This document shows, piece by piece, positions 3,261 to 47,198 of a DNA stretch of 64,000 bases (the stretch's first letter is position 1; each line of letters opens with the position of its first letter). Source of the stretch: an uncultured Christensenella sp. (GTDB taxonomy: Bacteria; Bacillota; Clostridia; Christensenellales; UBA1750); NCBI GenBank assembly GCA_948468595.1, contig CAOKIU010000001.1, forward strand, positions 28,811 through 92,810. The letters are read 5' to 3'. The notes below the pieces were generated by a model. That model was given only the letters and a program-made list of their open reading frames with translations, was not told the origin of the DNA and ran no database searches. The position numbers and the translations under genes are program-made.

Positions 3261-3939
3261 ATTGGGGATATGCGGCCGCCAAGCGCTCGTGCGCTGCGCG
3301 CACCTCATCCGGCACGTCCACATGGACGATAAACCCCTTGCCCTTGGGGCCGTAGCCGCTTTCATCGTCCGTAAGGCGCGGAATCTCGCCCAGAACCAGG
3401 CGCAAGAACCGCTCCCGCCCGCCATAGAGCGCCGGGCTTTCGACGGTGGGGAGAAAGGGCGGCGCACTGAAAATCCGCGCGCCGGGAAAGACCTTGGCAA
3501 ATGAAGCGGCCGATCTTCTTTGCAAGATGGGGTCCTGCACCAGGGCGATGGTGCGCGGACGCACGCCGCGCTGGTCGAGCAGCGCGCGCGTTTTCACCGC
3601 ATTGTCGCCGCAGTTTGCCGAGGTCGCCTCCAGCATCAGGTTGGCCGCGCAGGTCTTGCGCACAATGCGCGCAAACAGCTCCGCCTCCGACCTGTCGCGG
3701 GTTTCCATCCCCCGGTAGGCCGCCGAGCGCTCCAGCGCCTCATACAACGGCAGCGTGGAATGCCCGATGCCGCCGCTGACGACAAAGTGCCAGAATTGCT
3801 TTTCGCGGTACAGTCCGGCGGCGTATTCCGCGGCACAGGGCAGGGCGCTGCCCAATAACACCAGTACCTCCGCGCAGTCAAACGCATCCCGGGGCGACAG
3901 AAAGCTCAGCAGTATTTGAAGGTCCTCTTCCCGCTGCAT
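3247..3939 (-). CDS. YdcF/DUF218 family protein
   Basis: Family resemblance only (VLVLLGSA...[10 protein letters not shown]...[11 protein letters not shown]). I chose the ATG at 3939 because AAGGAG lies 9 nt upstream. The GTG at 3960 has no usable spacing. Confidence 0.6.
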
Positions 3940-4072
3940 GGCGATGATCTCCTTTGCCACGTCCTTAACATCTATGATGATATCGCATCCGCATATACTT
4001 TACAAGAAATTGTGCACAAAAGCAACATTCTTCGACACCAAAACCCGCGCCCGGACGACAGCGCCTGCGGAC

Positions 4073-41491: not shown

Positions 41492-42310
41492 TCATAGATA
41501 GGGAATCATATCGCCCAGTTGATTAAAGATGAGATCCGGCTCGATGCCATAGCGGTCGATATCCGCAAGTCCGCTCTCCCCCGAAAGCACCAGGATGGAG
41601 CACAGGCCGTGGTTGACCCCGGTTGCAACATCGGTATAGAGGCGGTCGCCCGCCATGGCCAGGCTCTCCCTGCCAAGGCCGGTGCGCTCCTGCGCGGCGC
41701 GCACAATCTCCGGGTGCGGCTTGCCGATGACCACATCGGCCTTCCTGCCGCAGGAGGCTTCGATAAAGGCCATGATCGCACCGATGTCCGGCACGAATCC
41801 GCTTTCCGTGGGGCAGTTAAAGTCGGGATGCGTGGCGACGTAGGGCAGCCCCGCGCGCACCAGGTCGCATACCTTGCACATCTTGGCGTAGTCAAGCGTG
41901 GTGTCAAATCCCGCCAGCACCATCTCCGGTTGCTCATCATCCAGGGGAACGCCGAGGCGCAGCATCTCCTCCCGCAGGGATGGATTGCCCAGCAAAAACA
42001 CGCGCTTGCCGGGGTGCTCGCGCAGGAGGTAGTGCGCCGCGGCCTGTCCGGAGGTGAGAATGTCCTCCGGGTCCGCCTCTACCCCCAGGCGGCGCAGCTT
42101 GAGCACGTAGTGCTCTACCGACCGCGAGGAGTTGTTGGTCAAAAACAGGGCGCGGCGTCCGGTGCGCCTGACCGCCTCAAGAAAGTCCAGCGACCCTTCA
42201 ATGAGCCGGTCGCCCAGGTAAAACGTGCCGTCCATATCCAGCAAAAAGCAGCGGACCGGCCGCAGTTTTTCGCGTATCTGCTCAAACGTCAGGTCATGCA
42301 AGCATCTCAT
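41492..42310 (-). CDS. HAD-IIA family phosphatase (NagD/AraL-like)
   Basis: Contains FLLDMDGTFY, LTNNSSRS and GDRLYTDV. Start at 42310, overlapping the upstream gene by 17 nt. The 388-aa ORF in the track is an over-extension. Confidence 0.8.
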   Translation of the reverse strand: MRCLHDLTFEQIREKLRPVRCFLLDMDGTFYLGDRLIEGSLDFLEAVRRTGRRALFLTNNSSRSVEHYVLKLRRLGVEADPEDILTSGQAAAHYLLREHPGKRVFLLGNPSLREEMLRLGVPLDDEQPEMVLAGFDTTLDYAKMCKVCDLVRAGLPYVATHPDFNCPTESGFVPDIGAIMAFIEASCGRKADVVIGKPHPEIVRAAQERTGLGRESLAMAGDRLYTDVATGVNHGLCSILVLSGESGLADIDRYGIEPDLIFNQLGDMIPYL

Positions 42311-43604
42311 CGACAATCTCCTCCAACACGCCCAGGTCAAAGGCCAGCTTGAGCAGGGTAAAGCGCGGCCGCAGCAGCCACGCGCACAAAAGCGCGTCGC
42401 GCACGTCCTCCGGCCGGACGCCGACCTGGTCCGGATGCACGGGGCCGCCGCTTTCCGCCAGCATCCTAAGCATCTCCTCGCGGCTTTCCCAAAGCGCGTC
42501 CGCTTGGGACTTGAGCTCGGTCCAATGCGCCAAAAGGCGGTCATACTGCTCCTGGGTGCTGGTGGCCTCCTCGCGGTCCAGGGGATTGCGCGCCAAAAAG
42601 CCGTCCGCCAAATCGCCATAGGCCGCCCGCATGCGCCGCTCCCACGCCTGCCGGTCAACGGGTTTTAGGGGGCGCTTCTTCGCAAAGAAGCGGTGTGCGA
42701 ACTCCACAATGAGCAGGGTGGCCACGCCCACCTTGTCGCCGTGGAGGCTGGCGCCCTGGCCCCTTTGCAGCTGCCGCATCTCCCAGAAATGGGAGAGGTG
42801 GTGTTCACATCCGGAGGCGGGGCGCGAGTTACCCATCATCTGCATGGCCAGGCCGGAGAGCGTCAGCCCCCGCGTCAGTTCCGTGACGGCTTCCGGCGTG
42901 CGCGCCGCCAGGCCCGCGGCGTTCTGCCGGCAGATTTCCACGGCCTGACGCATCAAGCCGGCGATGCGCTGGCAAAACGGCTCGCCCGTCAAGAGCGAGG
43001 AGAGCTTCCAATCCATCAGCGCGGTGTATTTGCCCAGCATGTCGCCAAGGCCCGCGGCCACCATGGCGCGCGGCGCGGCGCACAAAACGCGGGGCGAAGC
43101 GAGCACAGCCTCGGGATGAACGGCTTCATAGGTGATCTTCATGCCCTCCTCCAGCACAGGGGAAACGGAGGAGGCGTATCCATCCATGGACGGCGCGGTG
43201 CCCACCACCAAATAGGGCGTCTTGACGCGATGGGCGACGAAGCGCGTCGTATCATTGACGGTGCCCGAGCCCACCGCCACCAGAAGCTTGGTGCGCTCGC
43301 TCACGCCCAGCAGCACCTTGCCGATGCTCTCCGCGTCGGCGTGCAGTTCGCGCCCGCGCAGCAGCACGGTCTTGACGGGAAACTCCTGCCCAAGCGCGCG
43401 CTCCGCATCGCGCCCGGCGGCCTCGAAGGTGCGCTCGTCCGCAACCAAGGTCACGCCTCCCGCGCCCAGCTCCCGCGCAAGAGCGGTCAAGCGCGCGGTC
43501 CAATCCTCCCCGATGTAGATCTCGCGCGTGCGCATCGCGTGCGTAGCGCCGCAGGGGCACGCCCCCTGCGCGGCCCTGGCCAGGTCCAGCAAGTCATCCG
43601 CCAT
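42294..43604 (-). CDS. Iron-containing alcohol dehydrogenase family, sn-glycerol-1-phosphate dehydrogenase (AraM/EgsA)-like
   Basis: Contains VAVGSGTVNDTTRF and TAPSMDGYAS plus His-rich metal ligands (CEHHLSHFWE). Start at 43604 with AGGAGGA upstream. Confidence 0.65.
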   Translation of the reverse strand: MADDLLDLARAAQGACPCGATHAMRTREIYIGEDWTARLTALARELGAGGVTLVADERTFEAAGRDAERALGQEFPVKTVLLRGRELHADAESIGKVLLGVSERTKLLVAVGSGTVNDTTRFVAHRVKTPYLVVGTAPSMDGYASSVSPVLEEGMKITYEAVHPEAVLASPRVLCAAPRAMVAAGLGDMLGKYTALMDWKLSSLLTGEPFCQRIAGLMRQAVEICRQNAAGLAARTPEAVTELTRGLTLSGLAMQMMGNSRPASGCEHHLSHFWEMRQLQRGQGASLHGDKVGVATLLIVEFAHRFFAKKRPLKPVDRQAWERRMRAAYGDLADGFLARNPLDREEATSTQEQYDRLLAHWTELKSQADALWESREEMLRMLAESGGPVHPDQVGVRPEDVRDALLCAWLLRPRFTLLKLAFDLGVLEEIVDEMLA

Positions 43605-43657
43605 GGACTCTTTCCTCCTGCCATTGTTTTCCTCCATTATAACACCTTTTGTTCGAT

Positions 43658-43738
43658 AAAAAAAGGACGGCCTTGCCGCAAGACCGCCCCTTTTTTAAGC
43701 GCATGACAAAAGGCCGCCGAAAAACTTCGGCAGCCTTT
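43658..43738. terminator. Two consecutive stem-loop terminators
   Basis: An A-run, GGACGGCCTTGC...AAGACCGCCCC and a T-run (43658-43696), then AAAGGCCGCCGAA...TTCGGCAGCCTTT (43708-43738). On the minus strand both follow the N/Q micro-ORF and precede the G1P-dehydrogenase promoter (TGtTATAAT at 43636-43644). Confidence 0.7.
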
Positions 43739-43888
43739 GGACGGCTCTGATCAGAGATCGTCCACATCCTGGACCGGGATTTCGTTTTTGATGGGAAGTC
43801 CCGTCCAAGATCCCAGCGGGTCAGTGGCGCTCGGCTCTAAGCCAATGGCCGATAAGCCCGCCGCCGTCGGTGCGGGAAAAGCTTCCCT

Positions 43889-44038
43889 TCAGTCCTCGTA
43901 GGGATTCTTCTGGTTGTTGTTCTGGTTGTTGTTGTTCTGATTCTGGTTGTTGTTCTGATTCTGGTTGTTGTTCTTGTTCTGGTTGTTGTTCTGGTTGTTG
44001 TTCTTGTTCTGGTTCTGATTCTTGTTGTTGTTCTGCAT
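43889..44038 (-). CDS. 49-aa Asn/Gln-rich microprotein (candidate small spore protein)
   Basis: Hand translation of the minus strand gives MQNNNKNQNQNKNNNQNNNQNKNNNQNQNNNQNQNNNNQNNNQKNPYED, then TGA. GAGGTGAT lies 5 nt upstream of the ATG. A sigma-G-like promoter lies upstream and terminators lie downstream. It is absent from the ORF track because it is under 60 aa. Confidence 0.55.
   Translation of the reverse strand: MQNNNKNQNQNKNNNQNNNQNKNNNQNQNNNQNQNNNNQNNNQKNPYED
43905..44030 (-). repeat. Imperfect tandem codon repeat (AAC/CAG/AAG units; GTTGTTGTTCTG-type periodicity on the plus strand)
   Basis: Read directly: repeated ggttgttgttct(g/t) units fill the body of the micro-ORF. Confidence 0.9.
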
Positions 44039-44055
44039 TTCAATCACCTCGCCAC

Positions 44056-44084
44056 TATTATGTCCGGCTCAGGGATTGCTATGC
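44056..44084 (-). promoter_or_regulatory. Forespore sigma-G/F-like promoter upstream of the N/Q micro-ORF
   Basis: On the minus strand: GCATA, 17-nt spacer, CATAATA. This matches the published sigma-G consensus (GHATR, 17-18 nt, CATXHTA). Caveat: only 17 nt separate the -10 box from the ATG, so the leader would be very short. Confidence 0.4.
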
Positions 44085-44092
44085 GGATTTTT

Positions 44093-45163
44093 TTACGGCT
44101 GAAGCGGTTCGTCATCTCTTTCCTCGCCACCGGCGGCAGTGGACGGCGAGGCGGGCGGCGCCGTGGCGGTAGGCGCTGCGGTGACATCCGGCTGCGTCAA
44201 GGCCGCGTCCGGCGTGTTGCCGGCCTCCGGTTGCGCGGGGTCAACCGGAGATTGCGCGCCGGGCTCTCCCAGCGGCGCCTGCACATACAGGACGTTGCGG
44301 TCGCCATCTAAAAAGACGATGGGCTTTCCCTTTTCCAGGTCCGCGCGGCGGCACAGCACGGCGGCAGGCAAGGCATCCTGCCCTGCCATCGCCTCGCCAA
44401 AGGCGACGCGAACCAGGATATAATAATCGTTTTCGACGATTTCGGAAATACTGACCTGCCGGGTTTCGCCGCTCTGCGGCGCGGCCACGACGAGCGCTTG
44501 GTCTTGCGCAAGCTCCGGCCGGCGCTCACTGCCCAAGGCGTAATACAGCGCACTGGCATGCTCGCCCGCATAGGCGGAGGGCGCAAAATCAATCGGCGTG
44601 CCCACCAGGTCGAACAGCGTGGTATCCAGCGCGGCCCGGAGTTGGGCGTCATCGGGCGGGAAGTCCTCCGTTTGGTCGTCCGGCGCAGGGGGCGTATTCT
44701 GCGTGTTCAGCCCCTGCTGCCAGGTGGCCAGGAGCTGGGAAAGCCCGGCGGGGCGGAGGCTCAGATACACGCGCACCGCCTGATCCTTGACCTTGCGATT
44801 GATGGGTACGTTGAGGATATTCTGATACTCGTCATAGAGCAGGGACATGGTGCCCAAGGACGTGGTCAGATAGATCTCGTGCGAGGCGTTAAGCTCCGGC
44901 GAGTAGTTTTCCGGGATCTCCACCGTGACGGGCGCTGCCGCGTAAACCTCGTCAAGGAGCGCGGCGCAGTCCGCATCCGCGACCGCGTGGCTAATCCTGG
45001 GAATGTTCTGGCCCACGCCGACGCTGAGAAAATCGACGGAGGCTTGGGTGACGTTTTCCCGCGGGAGAAGGGACTGCACGTCCATCGTCTCGCTCTTGCA
45101 GCCGGGCAGCACCATAAGGAGCGCCGCCAACAGAATCGCTATGATAAAGGATCTTTTTTTCAT
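44093..45163 (-). CDS. Hypothetical lipoprotein with Pro/Ala/Thr-rich C-terminal tail
   Basis: MKKRSFIIAILLAALLMVLPGC lipobox. Start at 45163. I recognise no family. Confidence 0.65.
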   Translation of the reverse strand: MKKRSFIIAILLAALLMVLPGCKSETMDVQSLLPRENVTQASVDFLSVGVGQNIPRISHAVADADCAALLDEVYAAAPVTVEIPENYSPELNASHEIYLTTSLGTMSLLYDEYQNILNVPINRKVKDQAVRVYLSLRPAGLSQLLATWQQGLNTQNTPPAPDDQTEDFPPDDAQLRAALDTTLFDLVGTPIDFAPSAYAGEHASALYYALGSERRPELAQDQALVVAAPQSGETRQVSISEIVENDYYILVRVAFGEAMAGQDALPAAVLCRRADLEKGKPIVFLDGDRNVLYVQAPLGEPGAQSPVDPAQPEAGNTPDAALTQPDVTAAPTATAPPASPSTAAGGEERDDEPLQP

Positions 45164-45287
45164 TATTTCCCGTCCTTCGCGCCGCATGCGCCGCAATGTT
45201 TTCTAATCCATCCTATTATACATGCTGGCGCGGCTTTTTGCAACGGCAGCCGCGCGCGGCGCCGGATAAAAATATTGTTCGGCCAAG

Positions 45288-45317
45288 GTATGCCTTTTGC
45301 CTGTATGGAGCACAATA
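45288..45317 (+). promoter_or_regulatory. Possible sigma-G-like promoter of the YhcN/YlaJ gene
   Basis: GTATG, 18-nt spacer, CACAATA. There is one mismatch in the -10 box. Confidence 0.3.
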
Positions 45318-45340
45318 AAGCCCGAAGGAGGCGAAAACCT

Positions 45341-45913
45341 TTGAAACAGAAGATCAAATTCATGTTGCTGACGACCCTTGTGGTGGTCGCGCTGACGGGC
45401 TGCGCCTGCAACGGACCGAGCACGTCGCCCACGCCCAAGCCGAGCGCGGTGACCACCACGCCCATCCCCACGCAGAGCCAGAGCGCCGAGCCGTCCCCCA
45501 TGGACAGCCCCATGGCCAGCCCTGACACCTCCGTTTCCCCCACGGAATCCGGAACCGACATGATGGCGGTGGATACCGAAGGGCTGAAGATGGAAGTGGA
45601 GAAGCTGAGCGAAGTGGACACCGTTGACGTTGTCGCGCAGGGGAACAAGGCCATCATCGGCCTGACCTTTGACGCGCAGTACCAGGGCACGCTGACCGAC
45701 CGCATCGAAGAGATGGTCAATGAGAAGATCACCGCCAAGGAGGCGGGCATCACCAACGTCGCCGTGACCGCCGACCCCACGCTGTGCACCGAGGTCAAGA
45801 CGCTTGCGGAGGAGACCCGCGGCAAGAACATGACTGAGGAACAGAAGAAGAAGTTCGACGAGCTGTATGCCAAGATCAAGCCCGCGGGCACGGAGTCGTC
45901 CGCGGCGGCATAG
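45341..45913 (+). CDS. YhcN/YlaJ family sporulation lipoprotein
   Basis: Lipobox VVALTGC, a Pro/Ser/Thr linker, then the family core (VEKLSEVDTVDVVAQGNKAIIGLTF...ITNVAVTADP). I prefer the TTG start at 45341 because AGGAGG lies 9 nt upstream. ATG alternatives exist at 45305 and 45359. The 471-aa ORF in the track is an artefactual extension. Confidence 0.7.
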   Translation: MKQKIKFMLLTTLVVVALTGCACNGPSTSPTPKPSAVTTTPIPTQSQSAEPSPMDSPMASPDTSVSPTESGTDMMAVDTEGLKMEVEKLSEVDTVDVVAQGNKAIIGLTFDAQYQGTLTDRIEEMVNEKITAKEAGITNVAVTADPTLCTEVKTLAEETRGKNMTEEQKKKFDELYAKIKPAGTESSAAA

Positions 45914-46109: not shown

Positions 46110-47198
46110 ATGTTCTGTCCAAATCCGGTTGCGTTTACCGTTTTCGGCCGCGACATTTACTGGTACGGCATATTGATATCCCTCTCGGTTGTCCTTGCGG
46201 TAATCATGGTCTATCAGGAGGCCCGGCGCAAGGGGCTTGACGCGGACTGCATGCTGGACTATGCGCTGCTCACCGTGCCGGTGGCCATTGTCTTTGCGCG
46301 CATATACTATGTCGTCTTTGAATGGGAGCAATATGCGGCGGACCCTGTGCGCGCCCTCTACATCTGGGAGGGCGGCATCGCCATTTACGGGGCCATCATC
46401 GGCGGCGTCTTGGCCACGCTGATCTTTTCCAAGTGGAAGAAAATCTCCTTTTGGACCCTGGCCGACCTCGTCGCCCCCGGCTTGGTGCTGGGGCAGGCCA
46501 TCGGCCGCTGGGGCAACTTCTTCAACCAGGAAGCCTTTGGCGAGCTCGTGGTCAACCCCAAGTGGCAGTTCTTTCCCTATGCCGTCTACATCGAGCGGCT
46601 GGGGGAATGGCACATGGCGACCTTTTTCTATGAGTCCGCGGTCTGTTTCCTCATCTTCATTTTCCTGCTCATCTATCGCCGCAAGGCGAAAAACGCCCCT
46701 GCCGGCAACGTATTCCTGTGGTACTGGGTGCTCTACGGCATCGAGCGCGCTTTTGTCGAGGGCCTGCGCACCGATAGCCTTTGGATGCTCAAGGGCGGCG
46801 TGCCCATCGGAAACCTGATCTTCTTCCCCAACGGCCTGCGCGTATCTCAAGTGCTGTCCATCATCATGGTTGTCGCCTTCTCCATCGTGCTCATCGCACG
46901 CTATGCAAAGCGCCGCAAGGGCGCCAAGGCGGAGGCAGAGGCGGCGCTCGATCCCGGGCTGGTGCTGGTGCGGCACGACGCGGACCCCGCGCTTGAGAGC
47001 GAAAGCCCGGATGACGATTCCGAGCACAGCCAGCCCAACCGCGACGGCGATGCCGACGCGGCCGCCATGCTGCTGGGCGCTGAAATGGTCGGCCGCATCG
47101 CGGACGAAGCCACCGACGCGCAGGACGACGGCGAAGAGGCGGACGGCGGCGATGCCGCGGACGGAACTGAAGAGACGAACGGCGACGATGAGAACTAA
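46110..47198 (+). CDS. lgt: Prolipoprotein diacylglyceryl transferase with a ~90-aa acidic C-terminal extension
   Basis: Contains YWYGILISLSVV, YIWEGGIAIYGAIIGG and GQAIGRWGNFFNQEAFG. The tail is rich in D/E/A/G. Confidence 0.9.
   Translation: MFCPNPVAFTVFGRDIYWYGILISLSVVLAVIMVYQEARRKGLDADCMLDYALLTVPVAIVFARIYYVVFEWEQYAADPVRALYIWEGGIAIYGAIIGGVLATLIFSKWKKISFWTLADLVAPGLVLGQAIGRWGNFFNQEAFGELVVNPKWQFFPYAVYIERLGEWHMATFFYESAVCFLIFIFLLIYRRKAKNAPAGNVFLWYWVLYGIERAFVEGLRTDSLWMLKGGVPIGNLIFFPNGLRVSQVLSIIMVVAFSIVLIARYAKRRKGAKAEAEAALDPGLVLVRHDADPALESESPDDDSEHSQPNRDGDADAAAMLLGAEMVGRIADEATDAQDDGEEADGGDAADGTEETNGDDEN

Follow-up and report, generated by a model that had tools for sequence, protein, structure and literature searches.

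A conserved in-frame UGA, possibly read through, in a two-module small gene with a sporulation-type promoter from uncultured gut Clostridia

The 64,000-nucleotide stretch of DNA analysed here (hereafter, the window) is derived from an uncultured Christensenella sp. (contig CAOKIU010000001.1 of assembly GCA_948468595.1, positions 28,811 to 92,810) and carries on its minus strand a small open reading frame (ORF) of 49 codons composed largely of Asn and Gln, which an earlier reading made from the sequence alone (hereafter, the sequence-only reading) had proposed as an unannotated microprotein. The ORF, referred to here as module A, is a real conserved gene. The TGA that ends it is followed in the same frame by a conserved tail, module B, and the chances appear to be even that gut Clostridia related to Candidatus (Ca.) Spyradocola have kept, over a deep divergence, a programmed read-through of UGA-A, or an insertion of selenocysteine (Sec), in this forespore-type microgene.

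If true, a single mRNA would give rise to an Asn/Gln-rich peptide and to a minor fusion of that peptide with a conserved C-terminal docking motif, a rare case of functional chromosomal stop codon read-through in bacteria, and two new small-protein families would be tied to sporulation. Selenocysteine aside, there are hardly any documented chromosomal genes of bacteria in which a functional read-through of the stop codon has been maintained in evolution, and the comparative data provide a specific and testable site, UGA-AGG, in 11 lineages with a tail under selection. They also expose a large unannotated family of clostridial proteins of about 45 amino acids (aa) with a near-invariant C-terminal motif and, in part, sporulation-type promoter signals. 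Such genes are missed or truncated by annotation pipelines, which in the window's clade call only the Asn/Gln (N/Q) half or a tail fragment. For spore biology, the two modules are candidate core or forespore proteins of gut Clostridia, which lack the gamma-type small acid-soluble spore proteins (SASPs). The kinds of biology involved, leaky-stop recoding and small forespore proteins, are known, and it is the two unannotated small-protein families, A and B, that are new.

The in-frame TGA and the two modules of the gene

Module A occupies positions 43892..44038 of the minus strand, with its ATG at 44038 and its TGA at 43891-43889, and encodes the peptide MQNNNKNQNQNKNNNQNNNQNKNNNQNQNNNQNQNNNNQNNNQKNPYED, which starts with MQNNNKNQ and ends with NPYED. 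The start, the 49 sense codons, the terminal TGA and the peptide quoted in the sequence-only reading were reproduced exactly, while its composition of 30 Asn, 12 Gln and 4 Lys was corrected on recounting to 29, 11 and 4, respectively (N+Q = 82%). The GC content is 42% across the ORF against 62% for the window, and no second N/Q-rich stretch was found on scanning the six frames of the 64 kb. Tandem Repeats Finder detected the imperfect codon-level tandem repeat that had been described, with a period of 6/12/18 at 43908-44035. The codons used (AAC for 25 of 29 Asn, CAG for 11 of 11 Gln and AAG for 4 of 4 Lys) are those favoured by the other genes of the window (82%, 80% and 81%, respectively). 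The exact 49-aa product is also called on two contigs of independent ENA assemblies, whose DNA is identical base for base throughout the overlap. A mis-assembly of the repeat, against which the sequence-only reading had cautioned, is therefore unlikely.

A direct homology search with the 49-aa peptide using HMMER returned 993 word-sharing candidates, none of which scored after composition correction. As this correction hides homologues of the peptide, synteny through the upstream lipoprotein gene was used as the anchor. The lipoprotein has 20 homologues in a collection of 5.8 billion proteins, with identities of 44-51% save for one 99%-identical cluster. Searches of Pfam, NCBIfam and PDB with A, B and the full-length products gave low-complexity noise only (families at E<=10), in agreement with the earlier remark that no described family is recognised. 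Lipoprotein-anchored synteny, a genome scan (Ca. Spyradocola, L010 and L012) and a metagenome scan (one further lineage, L096-L102) together provided 11 distinct lineages, in which the flanking lipoproteins are 45-86% identical and the GC content of the locus ranges from 53 to 66%. In the syntenic contigs with enough downstream sequence the gene order is lgt <- yhcN/ylaJ <- | -> lipoprotein -> small ORF, and in every such contig a small ORF of 29-49 codons is present 3' of the orthologous lipoprotein gene. These ORFs start with ATG-CAG-AA(C/G/A), are rich in N/Q/K/S and are preceded by GAGGTGA and by promoter boxes of the form G[ACT]AT[AG]-N17/18-CA[TACG]A[AC]TA. All their length differences among the 11 lineages are whole codons; indels that are not multiples of three, which would have spoken against a conserved reading frame, were not found in the relatives. 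The closest named relative is Ca. Spyradocola, assigned by NCBI to the Christensenellales and not to the Oscillospirales, where the relatives had been placed. The notion of a self-contained protein made of Asn and Gln only had to be given up, as the relatives are N/Q/K/S-rich, often with KNC(G) Cys motifs, and the unit runs past the TGA. The window copy of module A is an extreme, Cys-free, lineage-specific N/Q expansion.

The TGA at 43889..43891 (minus strand), followed by AGG, is the proposed site of recoding by read-through. All 11 lineages have TGA as their first stop, whereas at the second stop TGA, TAA and TAG all occur. The base that follows the first stop is A in 11 of 11 lineages, as part of AGG in ten and of AAT in one; A follows in 5 of the 26 ordinary TGA stops of the window, and AGG makes up 6.9% of the Arg codons in its genes. 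A genome-wide reassignment of UGA was rejected, since TGA is the commonest ordinary stop (ending 26 of the 43 coding-like ORFs in the window) and the long genes have no in-frame TGA. For the same reasons, a recoding of UGA would be a local event and not a change of the code.

Module B (43754..43888, minus strand) comprises 45 in-frame codons, REAFPAPTAAGLSAIGLEPSATDPLGSWTGLPIKNEIPVQDVDDL, and matches the profile of the tail family described below. In every lineage the TGA is followed by 31-45 in-frame codons that contain ...(T/L)DPLGS(W/Y)TG(V/L/R)P...P(V/I)QD(A/V)DDL before the second, true stop, which in the window is a TGA followed by T (43751..43753). The lineages share no ATG, GTG or TTG in the stretch from the TGA to the motif, where the window, L004, L007, L010 and L092 lack these codons altogether. 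Over 19 core codons in 10 lineages (45 pairs) the synonymous difference (pS) is 0.597 and the non-synonymous difference (pN) 0.082, a ratio of 0.137; synonymous change is near saturation and includes TCN<->AGC serine switches. One or both of the other reading frames of the tail carry stops in most of the five loci examined. The window tail has every invariant column of the family alignment, T-D-P-x-G-S-[WY]-T-G-x-P...P-V-Q-D-x-D-D-L-stop. Thus, module B is under protein-level selection and is the evolutionarily constrained part of the unit. Because a conserved tail follows the UGA without a new start codon, the UGA is probably read through. Three features expected of programmed read-through coincide here: a stop whose identity is fixed across diverged orthologues while the second stops vary, an in-frame downstream sequence under purifying selection that has no start of its own, and a leaky stop context, UGA followed by A. 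UGA-A is reported to be especially prone to misreading by tRNA-Trp, and UGA is misread in B. subtilis (PMC5289835). According to the account of Karow 1998 given in PMC7918605, read-through of a catA86-TGA reporter amounts to about 6% in wild-type B. subtilis.

The signals that delimit the transcription unit enclose both modules. A -35 box GCATA lies at 44080..44084 (minus strand), in a place where every UGA-type locus has G[ACT]AT[AG], and 17 nt further the -10 region GGACATAATA (44056..44065) includes CATAATA at 44062-44056, as had been read before. The orthologous -10 regions follow GGnCA[TACG]A[AC]TA, with GTCCATACTA in the Spyradocola lineages. The ribosome-binding site (RBS) GAGGTGAT was found where the sequence-only reading had it (44043..44050), at 4 nt and not 5 nt from the ATG, and its GAGGTGA is kept in all orthologues. 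Two terminator hairpins exist as claimed, though not directly after the first TGA: hairpin 1, AAAGGCTGCCGAA-GTTT-TTCGGCGGCCTTT then TGT (43706..43738, RNAfold), and hairpin 2, with an A-tract, a GC stem and a T-tract (43658..43696, folding), both lie on the minus strand after the second stop, beyond 45 further in-frame codons. The hairpin GGGAAGCTTTTCCC that does directly follow the TGA is coding sequence (R-E-A-F-P). A hairpin and a T-run are also found 3' of the tail stop in the orthologues. As the hairpins follow the second stop and the next downstream gene has its own TGnTATAAT promoter after both of them, the transcription unit consists of promoter, RBS, A, TGA, B, stop and terminators. 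A leader-peptide or attenuator function, in which the Asn-rich ORF would sense Asn-tRNA, was considered and dropped, since neither a terminator nor an antiterminator comes after the UGA, what follows is coding and it is that promoter which serves the next gene. A search of the region against Rfam gave no relevant match at E<=1.

The promoter boxes agree with the forespore sigma-F/G type (GHATR-N17/18-CAT..TA, or a -10 of the type GG..A.A.TR, at a suitable distance from the start), for which the consensus was taken from PMC3789822 and general knowledge. Sigma-F promoters typically have a G before the -10, and sigma-G promoters an A after it (PMC3789822). As most lineages show the former base and some the latter, the promoter is called forespore sigma-F/G-type, the two sigmas being inseparable. 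The identification of such a promoter in the sequence-only reading is borne out by the retention of the boxes in the relatives and by a promoter of the same type before the divergent yhcN/ylaJ gene in the window and seven relatives. Within a set of 84 loci, 12 have an upstream match to the strict pattern GHATR-N17/18-CA[TA]A[ACT]TA, against about 0.75 expected (background 0.0089 per 400 nt), including all seven UGA-type loci of the set; loci added later have the same boxes with single -10 variants. Among genes that consist of B only, ATACTA shows the strongest enrichment of any upstream hexamer, being present in 8 of 56 where 0.27 would be expected (p=4e-10). Judging from these boxes, the microgene would be expressed in the forespore.

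The tail family and its architectures

A profile built from five tails matches 2,652 proteins in the collection of 5.8 billion, and an exhaustive search with a 34-sequence profile yielded 1,706 representative clusters at E<=1e-3, i.e. at least 1,700 clusters defined at 50% identity. The members are 31-122 aa long among the matches listed. A typical one has a Met, a short hydrophilic stretch rich in Lys/Arg and a C-terminal TDPLGSWTGVPxDPxExPVQDADDL, and almost all of the 150 best members end with the motif. The named carriers are all Clostridia (Oscillospiraceae, Oscillibacter, Faecousia, Bittarella, Pygmaiobacter, Ca. Merdivicinus, Ca. Scatosoma, Ca. Spyradocola and others). The family has no match in Pfam, NCBIfam or PDB, and the motif was not found in the searchable literature. 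Since AlphaFold (AF2), given the 34-sequence alignment, predicts no confident fold (pLDDT 63.5), the tail is modelled to behave as a short linear motif.

Three architectures were observed. The window's clade has the UGA-fused form, A-TGA-B. Ca. Scatosoma and some unnamed Clostridia have the modules as two ORFs, where A encodes 41-52 aa (MKNNQNNQ...KNCGxKNCGxKNCG...NHSYxHGGNND*) in a frame different from that of B, mostly ends with TAA (12 of 15) and as a rule shares nucleotides with the ATG from which B starts (TAATG, TGATG, AATGACTAA); the overlaps are 1-20 nt long, and in L042 the two ORFs are adjacent. Such overlaps are classical translational coupling. In most Oscillospiraceae B occurs alone. 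From these three architectures it follows that the microprotein first noticed belongs to a real N/Q/K-rich family, A, which always accompanies B. The choice of the first stop differs between UGA-fused and two-ORF loci (Fisher p=1e-4), a comparison confounded by GC content.

The Scatosoma-type A is characterised by a KNCG pentapeptide Cys repeat, typically in three copies (L015, L016, L018, L021, L029, L030, L031, L033, L043, L044, L053 and L077, at about 3840-4000 in most), and by the C-terminal NHSYxHGGNND, and its gene lies directly 3' of a rubrerythrin-like gene. The sequence suggests a metal or redox role for this A, which the Cys-free window copy could not share. A few members of the tail family depart from the usual layout. 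P0149, P0172, P0184 and P0186 have a longer conserved N-terminal region (...YSxxSAxPxDE...NAGIP...AQEQAAxRS...) before the same C-terminal motif and may represent a fourth architecture. P0147, P0218, P0234, P0260 and P0278 run 15-45 residues past the usual ...QDADDL end, which could be due to a lost stop, sequencing errors or further read-through. The family is also present in metagenome-assembled genomes labelled Faecalibacterium, Subdoligranulum and Gemmiger (L017, L050, L052), genera generally regarded as non-sporulating; either these labels are loose or the tail family is not strictly spore-specific. In L090 (1461-1556) and in L096-L101 the linker contains an in-frame ATG from which gene callers predict a tail-only product of 31-36 aa (P0033 and P0095, respectively). 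Thus, owing to this ATG, public protein sets split one apparent gene into an N/Q half and a tail fragment.

The favoured mechanism and the rival explanations

The model favoured here, for and against which the scales are about level, is that of a monocistronic, sporulation-type, two-module small gene which yields the N/Q peptide and, through UGA read-through, a minor fusion of the N/Q module to the tail. Transcription would start from the forespore sigma-F/G-type promoter and end at the two hairpins past the second stop. Translation from the strong RBS and the ATG would produce module A, an extremely hydrophilic Asn/Gln(/Lys) peptide without ordered structure, and most ribosomes would terminate at the UGA and release it as the 49-aa product. 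A minority would decode the UGA with a near-cognate tRNA, most likely tRNA-Trp, giving an A-W-B fusion of about 95 aa, whose C-terminal approximately 25 residues (TDPLGSWTGxP...PVQDxDDL-COOH) would present the conserved motif, presumably for docking on a conserved partner. What we infer from the comparison of sequences is that the UGA is decoded by read-through and that Trp is inserted there, and the same holds for any cellular function. By way of conjecture, A may be a reserve of nitrogen or amino acids or a hydration protectant in the spore core, and B a docking motif; a gamma-SASP-like nitrogen-store or prion-like role, as imagined in the sequence-only reading, is speculation.

Several observations weigh against this model or against its link to sporulation. 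With only a few per cent of ribosomes reading through, the yield of B would fall far below that of the coupled two-ORF layout, and the stoichiometry would therefore differ between the clades. Neither TGG or any other sense codon at the site of the UGA nor an uninterrupted A-B fusion was found among the long family members and the extra metagenome loci. The tail itself ends with TGA-C, also a weak context, in three orthologue lineages, so that context alone does not define the UGA site. The UGA is preceded at a distance of 2-4 residues by a Cys in 6 of the 11 lineages (C-D-U, C-x-P-U, C-R-E-H-U), which recalls the redox motifs of selenoproteins. The ATA/CATA elements of the promoter are shared by those of sigma-E/K, from which the sequence cannot set them apart, and no other sporulation gene is present among the 20 ORFs of the window that were scanned, which have housekeeping functions only. 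Furthermore, the type species of the Christensenellaceae is described as non-sporulating, and in the Scatosoma-type loci, where the A/B pair follows the rubrerythrin-like gene, inspection of 90 nt upstream of A showed no promoter of the sporulation type.

The rival explanations differ in what becomes of the UGA. It may encode Sec, which would make the product a selenoprotein of about 95 aa, with Sec often near the Cys of the KNC motif in a redox-active or metal-binding centre. Both UGA-specific mechanisms, near-cognate read-through and Sec, agree with the pattern observed, i.e. a strictly UGA-specific conservation inside a conserved ORF with coding sequence downstream, and the Cys residues upstream of the UGA and the (KNCGN)x3 repeats encoded beside the rubrerythrin-like gene in Ca. 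Scatosoma speak in favour of Sec. Reasonably stable hairpins follow the UGA at some loci (z=-2.8 in L004 and -2.4 in L089), and hairpins specific to single lineages may exist. However, no hairpin is shared in the 63 nt from the UGA, where z-scores range from +1.1 to -2.8 and both structures and sequences differ; between 7 and 22 codons separate the UGA from the motif, depending on the lineage; the region has no Rfam match at E<=1; and five lineages, the window included, have no nearby Cys. The equivalent position in the two-ORF relatives is a genuine stop, mostly TAA, and not a Cys codon, and no homologue with Cys in place of Sec was found among 80 genome loci, 12 metagenome loci and the long family members. 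The 64-kb window contains no tRNA-Sec, only a tRNA-Ala being found there. Sec insertion is accordingly regarded as unlikely. If the tail is taken as translated, the lack of a common hairpin, of an Rfam match and of a Cys-at-site homologue leads us to favour read-through, which is then somewhat probable, over Sec, which stays in the unlikely range.

It is distinctly improbable that A and B are separate polypeptides produced by termination at the UGA and non-canonical re-initiation, at AGG or at lineage-specific ATG, GTG, TTG or CTG codons in the linker. Equally little weight is given to the notion of a degenerate variant of the stop/start coupling found in Ca. Scatosoma. The Scatosoma-type overlaps offer a clear precedent, the linker of some UGA-type lineages offers an in-frame ATG or GTG from which the tail is annotated alone, and the surroundings of the stop, UGAAGG[G/A], are purine-rich and Shine-Dalgarno-like. 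Yet no start-like codon is conserved, five of the loci named above have none before the motif, AGG is a very poor initiator, and re-initiation would need neither TGA specifically nor B in the frame of A, both of which are found in 11 of 11 lineages. Even less credence is given to the original view, in which a 49-aa Asn/Gln peptide that ends at the TGA acts on its own as a store or prion-like component of the spore, and what is conserved downstream has no bearing on it, being a decaying remnant or an element of the 3' untranslated region. In its favour, the product of A alone is expected to be the major one under any model, A is an independent ORF in other clades, and the absence of gamma-type SASPs from clostridia (PMC3533761) leaves room for an analogue. 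As synonymous change in the tail is saturated and non-synonymous change very low across deeply diverged lineages, the tail is not a decaying remnant; it is conserved codon-wise and not as an RNA structure, and the terminators sit after it. That the stretch is not a gene at all, and that a non-coding AAC/CAG microsatellite or an assembly artefact has opened a chance ORF, can hardly be entertained: the low-complexity tandem repeat and the failure of HMMER, under composition correction, to find a homologue of the peptide would fit, whereas third codon positions track the codon preference of the genome, and the identity of the independent assemblies together with the conservation of start, RBS, promoter, frame and terminal residues in 11 lineages with differing repeat sequences effectively refutes it.

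Genomic context and comparison with known systems

The neighbours were correctly recognised in the sequence-only reading as a YhcN/YlaJ lipoprotein and another lipoprotein. The gene upstream of module A (44093..45196, minus strand, likely ATG at 45163), which served as the synteny anchor, encodes a clade-specific uncharacterised lipoprotein and has a conserved sigma-A-type promoter, TTGCAA-N17-TATAAT. Divergent from it lies the gene of the YhcN/YlaJ-family sporulation lipoprotein (45341..45913, plus strand; Pfam PF09580, E=8e-12), followed by lgt (46110-47198, plus strand; PF01790, E=4e-67) in an order kept in the relatives. The divergent intergenic region (45197-45340) is very strongly conserved, also in L003, L004, L005, L007, L088, L091 and L092, and bears the sigma-A-type promoter of the lipoprotein gene on one strand and, on the yhcN/ylaJ strand, a forespore-type promoter G[TC]AT[GA]-N18-CACA[AC]TA, the RBS GAAGGAGG and a TTG start. 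In the window this promoter is GTATG-N18-CACAATA (45288..45317, plus strand), at the same distance from the RBS as in the seven relatives, and yhcN probably starts at the TTG at 45341 and not at the upstream ATG at 45305. The yhcN gene of B. subtilis is under the control of sigma-G in the forespore. For lipoproteins of the YlaJ/YhcN type, the inner membrane of the spore is the site of action (PMC12331253). On the other side of the microgene, at 41492-43637 (minus strand), lie genes for an iron-containing alcohol dehydrogenase resembling glycerol-1-phosphate dehydrogenase (NF002022, E=3e-53, below the curated cutoff) and a HAD phosphatase; the pair occurs in some orthologous loci, with DUF3842 in its place in others. 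It resembles the AraM/AraL pair of B. subtilis.

Compared with known systems, the gene resembles the minor SASPs and small forespore proteins of Bacillus (SspG-P, Tlp), which are hydrophilic, lineage-restricted, about 40-50 aa long, preceded by forespore-type promoters and mostly of unknown function. It differs from them in lacking any sequence relationship, and TDPLGSWTGxP...PVQDADDL is absent from curated families, PDB and the searchable literature. With the gamma-type SASP (SspE) of Bacillales, module A shares its small size, hydrophilicity, Gln/Asn-rich low-complexity repeats, forespore-type promoter boxes (GHATR-N17/18-CAnAnTA) and strong RBS, and by analogy a role as a reserve of nitrogen or amino acids is plausible. 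Membership of the gamma-SASP family is excluded on sequence grounds, as neither the peptide nor the full-length products match any Pfam or NCBIfam family at E<=10 beyond compositional noise; unlike a gamma-type SASP, the product is half the size, is interrupted by an in-frame UGA, carries a conserved C-terminal module and has no sequence similarity, and its relatives contain Lys/Ser/Cys where gamma-type SASPs are Gln/Gly-rich. Gamma-type SASPs are absent from clostridia (PMC3533761). The alpha/beta-type SASP (SspA family) model gave no match in the Pfam and NCBIfam searches either. By eye, no motif resembling the cleavage site of the protease GPR (E-[FI]-[AG]-S-E-F, as generally described) was seen in A or B.

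Bacterial selenoprotein genes likewise have a conserved in-frame UGA with coding sequence downstream, and the Cys near the UGA in about half of the lineages adds to the likeness; they differ from the present gene, which has no conserved hairpin resembling a Sec insertion sequence, no Cys homologue at the site and a true stop in the two-ORF loci. The Scatosoma-type A and B ORFs correspond to coupled overlapping small-gene pairs (ATGA/TAATG), and as their coupling is of the classical kind, A and B appear to act together. In the window's clade, unlike in such pairs, B has no start and stands in A's frame behind the UGA. Comparison of the loci suggests that coupling was replaced by fusion through a leaky stop in this clade or that the history ran in reverse.

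In the coat/A1 gene of coliphage Q-beta, a programmed read-through of UGA is brought about by tRNA-Trp. Unlike this phage gene, the gene described here is chromosomal, of the sporulation type and from Clostridia, its extension comprises only 31-45 residues with the family-defining motif, and its read-through is proposed from comparative data only. It resembles both Q-beta coat/A1 and the leaky UGA of B. subtilis in having a UGA stop with a leaky 3' context, and, as in coat/A1, one ORF would give rise mainly to a short product and, in smaller amounts, to a form extended at its C-terminus, the extension being under selection and without a start of its own.

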